Sequence record: MN850580.1
Direction: 5' to 3' (one strand)
Source of the DNA: Escherichia phage momo
Length of the DNA stretch: 64,000 nt
Within the stretch, counting starts at the first letter, position 1, and every line of letters begins with the position of its first letter. The notes beneath the pieces were generated by a model that saw only the letters and a list, made by a program, of their open reading frames with translations, ran no database searches and had not been told where the DNA came from. The translations under genes and the position numbers were made by a program. Below, piece by piece: positions 51,531-52,517 of the stretch.

Positions 51531-52316
51531 TTAGTTCTTTGCGTCTAAGAAGGTTACTTCCGGTGAAGAGAAAACCGTCTCGATATCCTCATCATTTCTT
51601 GCATAGATGTAAGCATCTGCATCACTGCCAAATGTTACTGCAATTCTGTGATTGCTCTTCGACAGGTGGGTAACTAGAGCGTTACTTAGAGACATCTTCT
51701 CAACCGGAGGGTTACTTTGATGTATCTTACCTTTTCTTCGTCTGAAGAGGGTAACTGTATCATCTGTGAACATTACTACACCTGCAAAGTATTCTGGTTC
51801 ACAGTAGTTATTCCAACCTGAGCGTAACTTGTGGTACATCTCTCCTTCGTAGACATACAGATAAACATCTACACTCTTCATCACCTGATTAATGATAACT
51901 GTGACGGCTTGAGGGTCTAGCCCACCGATACCTGCACCAATCATAGGTAGACCAACTTTCTTCAACTGATTGACTTCACAGTATCTGTTAAGCTGTTTCA
52001 AAGATGATTCTAAAGCACTGTATCGGGCATCTTTACCAGTCTTAAGCTGAGTGTAAAGGTTAGCTATTCGACCTTGTTTTAAACGTGCTACAGAGAAATT
52101 ACCCAGTAAATTTTCACAGGGTTTGTGTCCTATACCACCTGCATATAGATAAACTTCTGTATCGGTCTCATATGCTTTTGGGTAAAGTTTAGAAATCTTG
52201 TCAGCGATACCTGCACCCATTAAATTCATACAGTTGCAACCGTGACCGATGATGTCAAACTTACCTTTATCAAATGCGGCAAAGATATCACCATTGATTA
52301 TTTTTACAATACCCAT
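51531..52316 (-). CDS. macro-domain (ADP-ribose binding/processing) protein with C-terminal extension
   Basis: INGDIF...IIGHGCNCMNLMGAGIA and GLPMIGAGIGGLD resemble macro-domain Gly-rich ADP-ribose-binding loops. Confidence 0.55.
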   Translation of the reverse strand: MGIVKIINGDIFAAFDKGKFDIIGHGCNCMNLMGAGIADKISKLYPKAYETDTEVYLYAGGIGHKPCENLLGNFSVARLKQGRIANLYTQLKTGKDARYSALESSLKQLNRYCEVNQLKKVGLPMIGAGIGGLDPQAVTVIINQVMKSVDVYLYVYEGEMYHKLRSGWNNYCEPEYFAGVVMFTDDTVTLFRRRKGKIHQSNPPVEKMSLSNALVTHLSKSNHRIAVTFGSDADAYIYARNDEDIETVFSSPEVTFLDAKN

Positions 52317-52517
52317 TTAACATCTCTCCCAAGATTCTTTATCTTCTGAAGGTTTTACACGTTGTCCTTCGTGGTCTACCCAGATACATCCACAACCTTC
52401 ACAGATTACTGGCATTGCATAGCCAGCTTTAAAGTCATCTTCAGTGATAAGACCTTTTAAGTCACCTGTATCACGTCCGAACATTTCGATAGAACAGTCT
52501 TTGCAGAAGTCAGCCAT
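52317..52517 (-). CDS. small zinc-ribbon protein
   Basis: CKDC ... CEGCGC; start taken at ATG 52517 with AGAGG RBS (track ORF extends to 52607). Confidence 0.45.
   Translation of the reverse strand: MADFCKDCSIEMFGRDTGDLKGLITEDDFKAGYAMPVICEGCGCIWVDHEGQRVKPSEDKESWERC

Follow-up and report, generated by a model that had tools for sequence, protein, structure and literature searches.

A two-domain macro protein of Escherichia phage momo as a candidate Tk.4-type enzyme against DNA ADP-ribosylation

This work concerns a gene of Escherichia phage momo (sequence record MN850580.1), of which we analysed a window of 64,000 nucleotides (nt). The gene lies on the minus strand at 51531..52316 and encodes a protein of 261 amino acids (aa) that consists of a macro domain and a C-terminal domain found only in this phage lineage. 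The explanation that we favour, although our confidence in it stays slightly below even, is that the protein strips ADP-ribose off phage DNA modified by DarT2, as an anti-DarTG2 enzyme of the Tk.4/AdfM type. Its motifs, the length of the loop that follows a conserved glutamine, the position of the gene, a His-to-Gln replacement in the Kolesnikvirus orthologs and the fast-evolving extra domain all favour the Tk.4 type. The same DNA had earlier been read from its letters and open reading frames without database searches (the sequence-only reading), and we give the claims of that reading where our results bear on them.

The window comes from a Felixounavirus, and allfine_75 of Escherichia phage allfine, annotated 'putative phosphatase', matches the 261-aa product at 100% identity. 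The 4-kb neighbourhood of the gene is present in ~257 phage records (Ounavirinae) at 60–99% nucleotide identity, and because of this conservation the macro gene is not a chance open reading frame.

The 261-aa protein carries a macro domain of the ALC1-like class

The sequence-only reading had assigned a macro domain from glycine-rich loops and had called for a search with macro profiles. In this search Pfam Macro (PF01661) matched residues 25–141 with 32.3 bits against a gathering cut-off of 22, and PHROG 335 ('phosphatase') matched with E = 7.6e-113. An AlphaFold2 model built on a 27-sequence alignment reached a pLDDT (predicted local distance difference test) of 92.3 and a pTM (predicted template modelling score) of 0.90. 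Comparison of this model with the PDB by Foldseek gave, at the top ranks, TARG1 (1.2e-10), the DarG macrodomains of Thermus and Mycobacterium and yeast Poa1p (1e-9); the target-normalised template modelling scores against TARG1, DarG and Poa1p were 0.76–0.87, and the model showed the three-layer alpha/beta/alpha macro fold. The family profile compared with the PDB returned TARG1 (2.4e-17), DarG of Mycobacterium tuberculosis (1.2e-16), SCO6735 (1.6e-15) and Poa1p (2.8e-15). PADLOC and NCBIfam each gave DarG as their sole match, over the macro part only (3.8e-13 for PADLOC; 47.7 bits against a cut-off of 250 for NF048014 of NCBIfam). The protein carries a genuine macro domain at residues ~1–157 (51846..52316, minus strand), for which Pfam, AlphaFold2, Foldseek, the profile comparison with the PDB, the invariant alignment columns and PADLOC all speak. 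By profile and by fold its nearest relatives are of the ALC1-like class (TARG1, DarG, SCO6735, Poa1p), not of the MacroD, PARG or macroH2A types.

The macro domain contains the motifs H25-G-C-N28-C, N86-L-Y-T-Q90 and P124-x-I-G-A-G-I-G-G132. Across 27 diverse homologs the invariant positions included H25, G26, N28, C29, G36, N86, L87, T89, Q90, P124, G127 and G129, and the two glycine-rich loops, MGAGIA and IGAGIGG, were invariant as well. SCO6735, TARG1 and the DarG macrodomain (PDB 5E3B, 4J5S and 5M3E/5M3I) are the best structural and profile matches, but the identity is 22–24%. The profile alignment placed Q90 at the position of TARG1 Lys84 and G131 at that of TARG1 Asp125; the Lys84/Asp125 dyad of TARG1 and the catalytic Lys80 of DarG are absent from the 261-aa protein, and therefore the lysine mechanism of TARG1 and DarG cannot apply. 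SCO6735 has a glutamine at the same position, Gln85, and its replacement (Q85A) abolishes efficient removal of ADP-ribose from thymidine in single-stranded DNA (ssDNA), a reaction that the class carries out; SCO6735 also rescues cells from DarT (PMC9411070). Since Gln85 is essential there, the loss of the catalytic lysine is compatible with DNA de-ADP-ribosylation. Hydrolysis of thymidine-linked ADP-ribose on DNA by TARG1, DarG and SCO6735 (PMC9411070 for SCO6735) has been termed a unifying function of the class.

Two identities were rejected. A DarG antitoxin would have matched over its full length, including the DarT-binding C-terminal domain, and no toxin gene adjoins the macro gene. Some GenBank records name a YmdB/MacroD-type O-acetyl-ADP-ribose deacetylase; NCBIfam returned DarG only, and the top PDB matches held no MacroD-type entry. 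The annotations 'phosphatase' and 'Poa1p-like' stem from likeness to yeast Poa1p, an ADP-ribose-1''-phosphate phosphatase (PDB 6LFQ) whose cellular role lies in tRNA splicing. Poa1p shares the fold and the H-x-C-N-C motif, but its identity to the 261-aa protein is ~23%, and at the position of the invariant Gln of the phage macro family it presumably has a serine.

Relationship to the phage proteins Tk.4 and Adpp

The T4 gene tk.4 (adfM) alone reached significance when genes were scored for conditional essentiality under DarTG2, and its clean knockout sensitises T4 to DarTG2 (HIDEN-SEQ preprint, 10.1101/2025.11.20.689424). Tk.4, with its sequence taken from the T4 record, was 35% identical to the 261-aa protein (82 bits, E = 3e-24). 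The motifs HGCNC, NLYTQ and GAGIG are identical in the two proteins, the post-Gln loop is equally long in the two, and both are encoded by accessory genes of an early region. Tk.4 is a single domain of 155 aa, whereas the 261-aa protein adds an orphan domain of ~100 aa and comes from a genome that carries NARP1, the module formed by Adps and Namat.

The other characterised relative is Adpp, a Poa1p-like macro protein found inside ~15% of NARP1 operons, where a macro gene counted as associated if it lay at most two genes away from Adps or Namat. Adpp of Vibrio phage Gary (gp137) was shown by liquid chromatography–mass spectrometry to turn ADP-ribose (ADPR)-1''-phosphate, the product of the RES-domain defence aRES, into ADPR; it was required against aRES, and the ADPR that it makes lets Adps and Namat rebuild NAD+. 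The mutants H24A and N27A were made, and H24A was among the inactivating mutations (10.64898/2026.01.28.702374). Gary Adpp was 27% identical to the 261-aa protein (52 bits) and 35% identical to Tk.4 (77 bits), and other NARP1-adjacent macro proteins were 30–33% identical to the 261-aa protein (up to 80.5 bits, the best being that of PHB09). Judged by their sequences, the 261-aa protein, Tk.4 and Gary Adpp are members of one Poa1p/TARG1-like phage family with the same H...N...Q core, and the macro domain described here is an ordinary member of this family, whose roles were reported in 2025–2026.

Within the family, the details of the motifs set the NARP1-adjacent proteins apart. All 12 aligned NARP1-adjacent representatives have a post-Gln loop that is 3–7 residues longer, in most of them this loop is aromatic-rich, and most show HQ/HVxNC and GxGLxG. 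The short loop, HGCNC and GAGIGG are found in the 261-aa protein, its two-domain relatives, Tk.4 (GAGIG) and the single-domain relatives P0020–P0031. Gary Adpp resembles the 261-aa protein in the His and Asn equivalents, in the conserved Gln and in coming from a phage that also encodes Adps and Namat; it differs in that the 261-aa gene stands outside the NARP1 operon, has the shorter loop, HGCNC instead of HQxNC and GAGIGG instead of GxGLxG, and adds the extra domain. Counts of short strings over the ~128 entries of the Adpp Table S1 gave 105 for YGQ, 11 for AYTQ, 4 for LHAQ and 2 for NLYTQ. The closest single-domain relatives (P0020, P0024 and P0025) had no NARP1 within 10 kb, and P0025 lies between a rIIB-like gene and helicase/DnaB genes.

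The Kolesnikvirus orthologs (L009 11998-12780; L014 and L015, both 301-1083) share the two-domain architecture and the synteny, and these phages likewise encode Adps and Namat. In both of their species lineages, with 84% identity between the two, the otherwise invariant His of HGCNC, the equivalent of Adpp H24, is a Gln (QGCNC), and therefore this His is dispensable for the conserved function of the clade. A His is likewise missing at this position from DarG-type enzymes, as judged from the alignment of phiKZ gp104. The QGCNC proteins are a natural variant that bears directly on the need for the His.

Proposed activity of the macro domain

We infer that the 261-aa protein would act early in infection as a counter-defence enzyme of the T4 Tk.4 (AdfM) type. 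The macro domain, with N28 and the two glycine-rich loops holding the ADP-ribose moiety, would hydrolyse the bond at C1'' of the distal ribose. This would follow the lysine-independent route of SCO6735, in which Q90 would position the distal ribose and an activated water would do the chemistry. The presumed substrate is the ADP-ribose that a DarT2-type toxin puts on thymidine of single-stranded phage DNA, and its removal would restore replication and transcription and would free ADPR. The C-terminal domain would be non-catalytic and may serve as an accessory binding module for the toxin, ssDNA or another partner.

Hydrolysis of some other ADP-ribose conjugate would fit the same domain: RNA (mRNA modified by a CmdT-type toxin, or uracil-linked ADP-ribose), protein, O-acetyl-ADPR or a Thoeris-type signal derived from ADPR. 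The class is promiscuous, TARG1 and SCO6735 acting on protein substrates as well (PMC9411070 for SCO6735), and published papers report reversal of RNA-linked ADP-ribosylation. A polynucleotide kinase (PNK)/HAD-like gene and 25 tRNA genes in the window point to an investment in RNA repair and supply, and the deacetylase annotation mentioned above belongs here too. We nevertheless consider this explanation improbable: no studied homolog has such a role, the annotation as YmdB/MacroD is not backed by NCBIfam or by the PDB matches, which are of the DarG, TARG1 and Poa1p types, and no neighbouring gene points to RNA or signal metabolism.

A number of observations weigh against an anti-DarTG2 role. 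Overall similarity does not discriminate, as the 80.5 bits for PHB09 equal the 82 bits for Tk.4. A neighbour-joining tree with 100 bootstraps, which included Tk.4, 12 NARP1-adjacent macro proteins, AdfM of phiKZ and TARG1, was discarded as a means of assignment since the placement of the two-domain clade was unsettled; the pairwise bit scores were equally uninformative. This phage retains H25 and N28, which correspond to H24 and N27 of Adpp. The case for T4 AdfM is built from genetics and structure prediction (10.1101/2025.11.20.689424), and the only anti-DarTG2 phage macrodomain with biochemically proven DNA de-ADP-ribosylation is phiKZ gp104, the chimallivirus AdfM (Cell Rep 2026). This protein is likewise a phage-encoded macrodomain used against DarTG2, but it belongs to a different, Lys-containing DarG-like clade (25 bits to the 261-aa protein), has the catalytic residues N23 and K78 and is imported into the phage nucleus. 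The charge and isoelectric point (pI) of the two domains, considered as possible signs that they bind or mimic DNA, showed no consistent pattern, and no consistent basic surface was present across the homologs. In the literature we found no published experiment on macro proteins of Ounavirinae. The genome itself carries NARP1, and the order Adps-Namat...macro is kept across relatives that include deeply diverged ones (L004, L005, L006 and Kolesnikvirus). In several other large phage groups, among the matches listed, a Namat-like gene and a member of the macro family apparently occur at distant loci. Finally, aRES is present in hosts such as E. coli, and also in Klebsiella and Enterobacter.

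As a separate observation, the name 'AdfM' covers two non-orthologous clades, T4 Tk.4 (Gln, Poa1p-like) and phiKZ gp104 (Lys, DarG-like), which are related by ~21 bits in BLASTP. We found no paper that treats Felixounavirus and DarTG together, and the text of the PhageMaP study of Bas63, in which 33 systems of the Gao panel were screened, mentions neither DarTG nor the macro gene.

The macro gene and the NARP1 module

The NadV-like and Prs-like genes that the sequence-only reading had placed ~8 kb away in the leftward region are there, and they correspond to Namat and Adps. The Namat-like gene (60096..61877, minus strand; annotated NadV/NAMPT) matched NAPRTase and NAMPT_N of Pfam and PRK09198 of NCBIfam (471 bits). 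The Adps-like gene (61923..62819, minus strand; annotated Prs) matched Pribosyltran and Pribosyl_synth of Pfam and TIGR01251 (138.8 bits); its start codon is uncertain, and the allfine record (allfine_89) gives it 882 nt. The Bas63 orthologs of the two genes, g79 and g80, are an experimentally defined NARP1. The module lies on the same strand as the macro gene, 7.8 kb and ~14 genes upstream, in the same leftward early region. The macro gene stands outside the NARP1 operon, behind rIIA/rIIB and the lysis genes, and has its own terminator-like hairpin.

The main rival explanation is an Adpp-like ADPR-1''-phosphate phosphatase that would serve NARP1 from a distance, in a split NARP1-AP pathway. 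The RES-type NADases known as aRES turn NAD+ into nicotinamide and ADPR-1''-phosphate, a compound of no use to Adps; in such a scheme the macro protein would convert it to ADPR, and Adps and Namat would rebuild NAD+. The activity of Gary Adpp, which has the same triad, the retained H25 and N28, the kept synteny and the presence of aRES in enterobacteria all speak for it, as does the phage vB_Kpn_K54_rec1, in which a Namat-like gene and a macro family member are 76 kb apart. Against it stand the distance of ~14 genes, compared with the published criterion of two, and the lack of the long loop, HQxNC and GxGLxG. The Kolesnikvirus orthologs have lost the H24-equivalent His yet keep NARP1, and among the matches listed NARP1 is missing from most phages with the macro family, for example from T4 and its relatives. 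A small-molecule phosphatase would moreover have no obvious reason for a fast-evolving extra domain or for allelic replacement. We regard this alternative as serious, if unlikely. The suggestion of the sequence-only reading that these genes could form one ADP-ribose handling set is not supported, as the macro gene lies outside the operon, has a terminator of its own and has no NARP1-adjacent sequence signature. The two functions that it had offered as examples, reversal of ADP-ribosylation by toxins and feeding of ADPR into NAD+ reconstitution, have both been demonstrated experimentally for homologs (Tk.4 and Adpp, respectively), and in our analysis the present evidence does not fully separate them.

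The anti-DarTG2 and the Adpp-like roles are not mutually exclusive, because both reactions break the C1'' bond of the same ribose. FelixO1-like phages, which include Bas63, Felix O1 and many therapeutic and biocontrol isolates, serve as a model of counter-defence centred on NAD+. An answer to whether the macro protein stops DarTG2, widens the reach of NARP1 to aRES or has both effects would help to predict host range against common enterobacterial defences, and it would show one scaffold re-tuned between DNA-repair-like and metabolite-salvage functions.

The C-terminal domain is an orphan and evolves fast

The unassigned extension of ~100 aa noted by the sequence-only reading proved to be a folded domain when its structure was predicted, as that reading had proposed. 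Residues ~158–261 (51534..51845, minus strand, with the stop codon at 51531..51533) were modelled confidently as six strands plus helices, a beta-rich fold, both in the full-length model and alone (core at a pLDDT of ~90 when modelled alone). A Foldseek search of BFVD with this domain returned only the macro protein of Escherichia phage SUSP2, a phmmer search of 1.84 billion representatives returned only Felix-like proteins, and Pfam and PADLOC gave no match. Outside this phage lineage the searches detected no relative of the domain, either by fold or by sequence. The two-domain proteins of Felixounavirus, Kolesnikvirus and metagenomic relatives (P0009–P0019) form a monophyletic clade with 99% bootstrap. 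To our knowledge, this two-domain architecture with a fast-evolving orphan C-terminal domain, limited to Ounavirinae-like phages, has not been described before, and the domain is a candidate for a new inhibitor or targeting module.

Conservation within the C-terminal domain was restricted to N170, P174, F177, D178 (Ala in this phage), G179 and Y236, and the mean frequency of the top residue was 0.48 compared with 0.69 in the macro domain. Because no conserved polar cluster is present, a second catalytic site in this domain is unlikely, as far as the alignment tells. The same observation bears on the idea that the macro domain is a non-catalytic ADP-ribose binder, sponge or scaffold and that the C-terminal domain holds the real activity. 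The absence of the catalytic Lys and Asp of TARG1 and the orphan fold would agree with this idea, but N28, Q90 and both glycine loops are strictly kept across the deep family, including two members with enzyme-dependent phenotypes, and we consider it very improbable.

The macro gene appears to be subject to allele exchange. The Felixounavirus contig L006 is 94% identical to the window over 9.2 kb and has an identical 66-aa gene next to the macro gene; its macro allele, however, is only 42% identical from ~codon 48 on (window 51345-52174 against L006 10143-10934), and nucleotide similarity is lost from ~codon 48 until 190 nt past the macro stop. The pattern looks like an allelic replacement. 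The macro alleles of the phage database group in bands of at least 95%, 90–95% and 60–80% identity, and across alleles the C-terminal domain diverges fastest. Fast evolution and allele exchange would favour a conflict with a host protein over the function of a metabolite phosphatase.

One joint reading, which we regard as doubtful, takes the C-terminal domain for a rapidly evolving toxin-binding module, so that a host defence based on ADP-ribose or NAD would be neutralised enzymatically by the macro domain and stoichiometrically by the C-terminal domain; the two-pronged strategy of DarG would then have been reinvented independently. Under this joint reading, ADPR released from DNA or from ADPR-1''-phosphate might be recycled by the NARP1 of the phage, which would link de-ADP-ribosylation to NAD+ reconstitution.

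The zinc-ribbon gene and the transcription unit

A gene for a 66-aa acidic protein of zinc-ribbon type (52317..52517, minus strand, counted from its ATG; PHROG 2210, pI 4.4), corresponding to allfine_76, adjoins the macro gene. The sequence-only reading had recognised the adjacency, but the order is the reverse of the one it gave: transcription would run through the small gene first, and the TAA of the small gene directly abuts the macro ATG. With a GGGAGA Shine-Dalgarno sequence 8 nt upstream of this ATG, translational coupling of the two genes is likely. The CxxC...CxGCGC motif attributed to the protein stood in part, as the four Cys of CxxC...CxxC are the only ones conserved among the homologs and the third Cys of CxGCGC is a Tyr in Vequintavirus.

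Homologs of the 66-aa protein were found by tblastn in 835 phage records. T5 has one (ORF059, L007 2501-2701, ~67% identical) in its tRNA region beside an HNH homing endonuclease, with no adjoining macro gene. Vequintavirus has one (bas49_0042, L008 2501-2701, ~72% identical) where an operon ends, next to a tail-fibre gene, with no macro gene nearby. The protein shows 65–76% aa identity across Felixounavirus, T5-like phages and Vequintavirinae, which seems unusually high for a small accessory gene of unrelated phage families, and it is more distant in Pseudomonas and Stenotrophomonas phages. Conversely, the gene before the macro gene is an o-spanin gene in Kolesnikvirus and an unrelated 103-aa gene in L005; in L004 a 63-aa CxxC...CxxC protein stands there, apparently unrelated by inspection, without formal comparison. 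The zinc ribbon as an obligate partner of the macro protein was rejected on this distribution. The adjacency in Felixounavirus is real, but the distribution gives no support for a functional pair.

On the minus strand the genes follow one another in the order Adps-like, Namat-like, a 111-aa gene, rIIA, rIIB, lysin, the PNK/HAD-like gene, a 154-aa gene, the spanins, three small genes, the 66-aa gene and the macro gene. A 17-bp hairpin with a T-run (51460..51501, minus strand) lies 30 nt past the macro stop codon and would terminate the transcription unit. A promoter-like site is present at 51093..51065, ~400 nt beyond the hairpin. Within the 500-nt gap 3' of the macro gene, Rfam gave no credible match to an RNA element (one was weak, at chance level), and only a repeat array and the terminator were seen.

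Other features of the window

The repeat array consists of four direct copies of a 28–34-nt unit at 51279-51472, in the intergenic region between the macro terminator and the promoter-like site. On the minus strand the unit reads roughly tCATTTTcaaa-TGTGCAGGTA, and TTGTGCAGGTA with at most one mismatch occurs six times in the window against 1.45 expected. It could serve as a set of sites for a binding protein or as a hotspot of recombination.

Two genes that separate NARP1 from the macro gene (788 aa and 369 aa; 55965-59520, minus strand) are rIIA/rIIB homologs. According to the PhageMaP paper on Bas63, g84 and g85 counter the qatABCD defence and are co-essential in doing so; counting the gene order from g79/g80, these may be rIIB and the lysin-like gene, or rIIA and rIIB.

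The PNK/HAD-like gene encodes a 231-aa protein (54643-55338, minus strand) that is annotated as polynucleotide kinase in allfine and in Kolesnikvirus. Homologs of this protein show weak HAD_PNKP matches in Pfam, and the gene overlaps the lysin-like SLT gene upstream. The 25 tRNA genes lie at 29067-33984, and together with the PNK-like gene they suggest a capacity for RNA repair. An element of ~60 nt at 38986-39048 matches intergenic spots of related loci at 84–88% identity (L006 2498-2556 and 6631-6672; L004 9055-9106) and probably represents a repeat that acts as a promoter, a terminator or another regulatory element.

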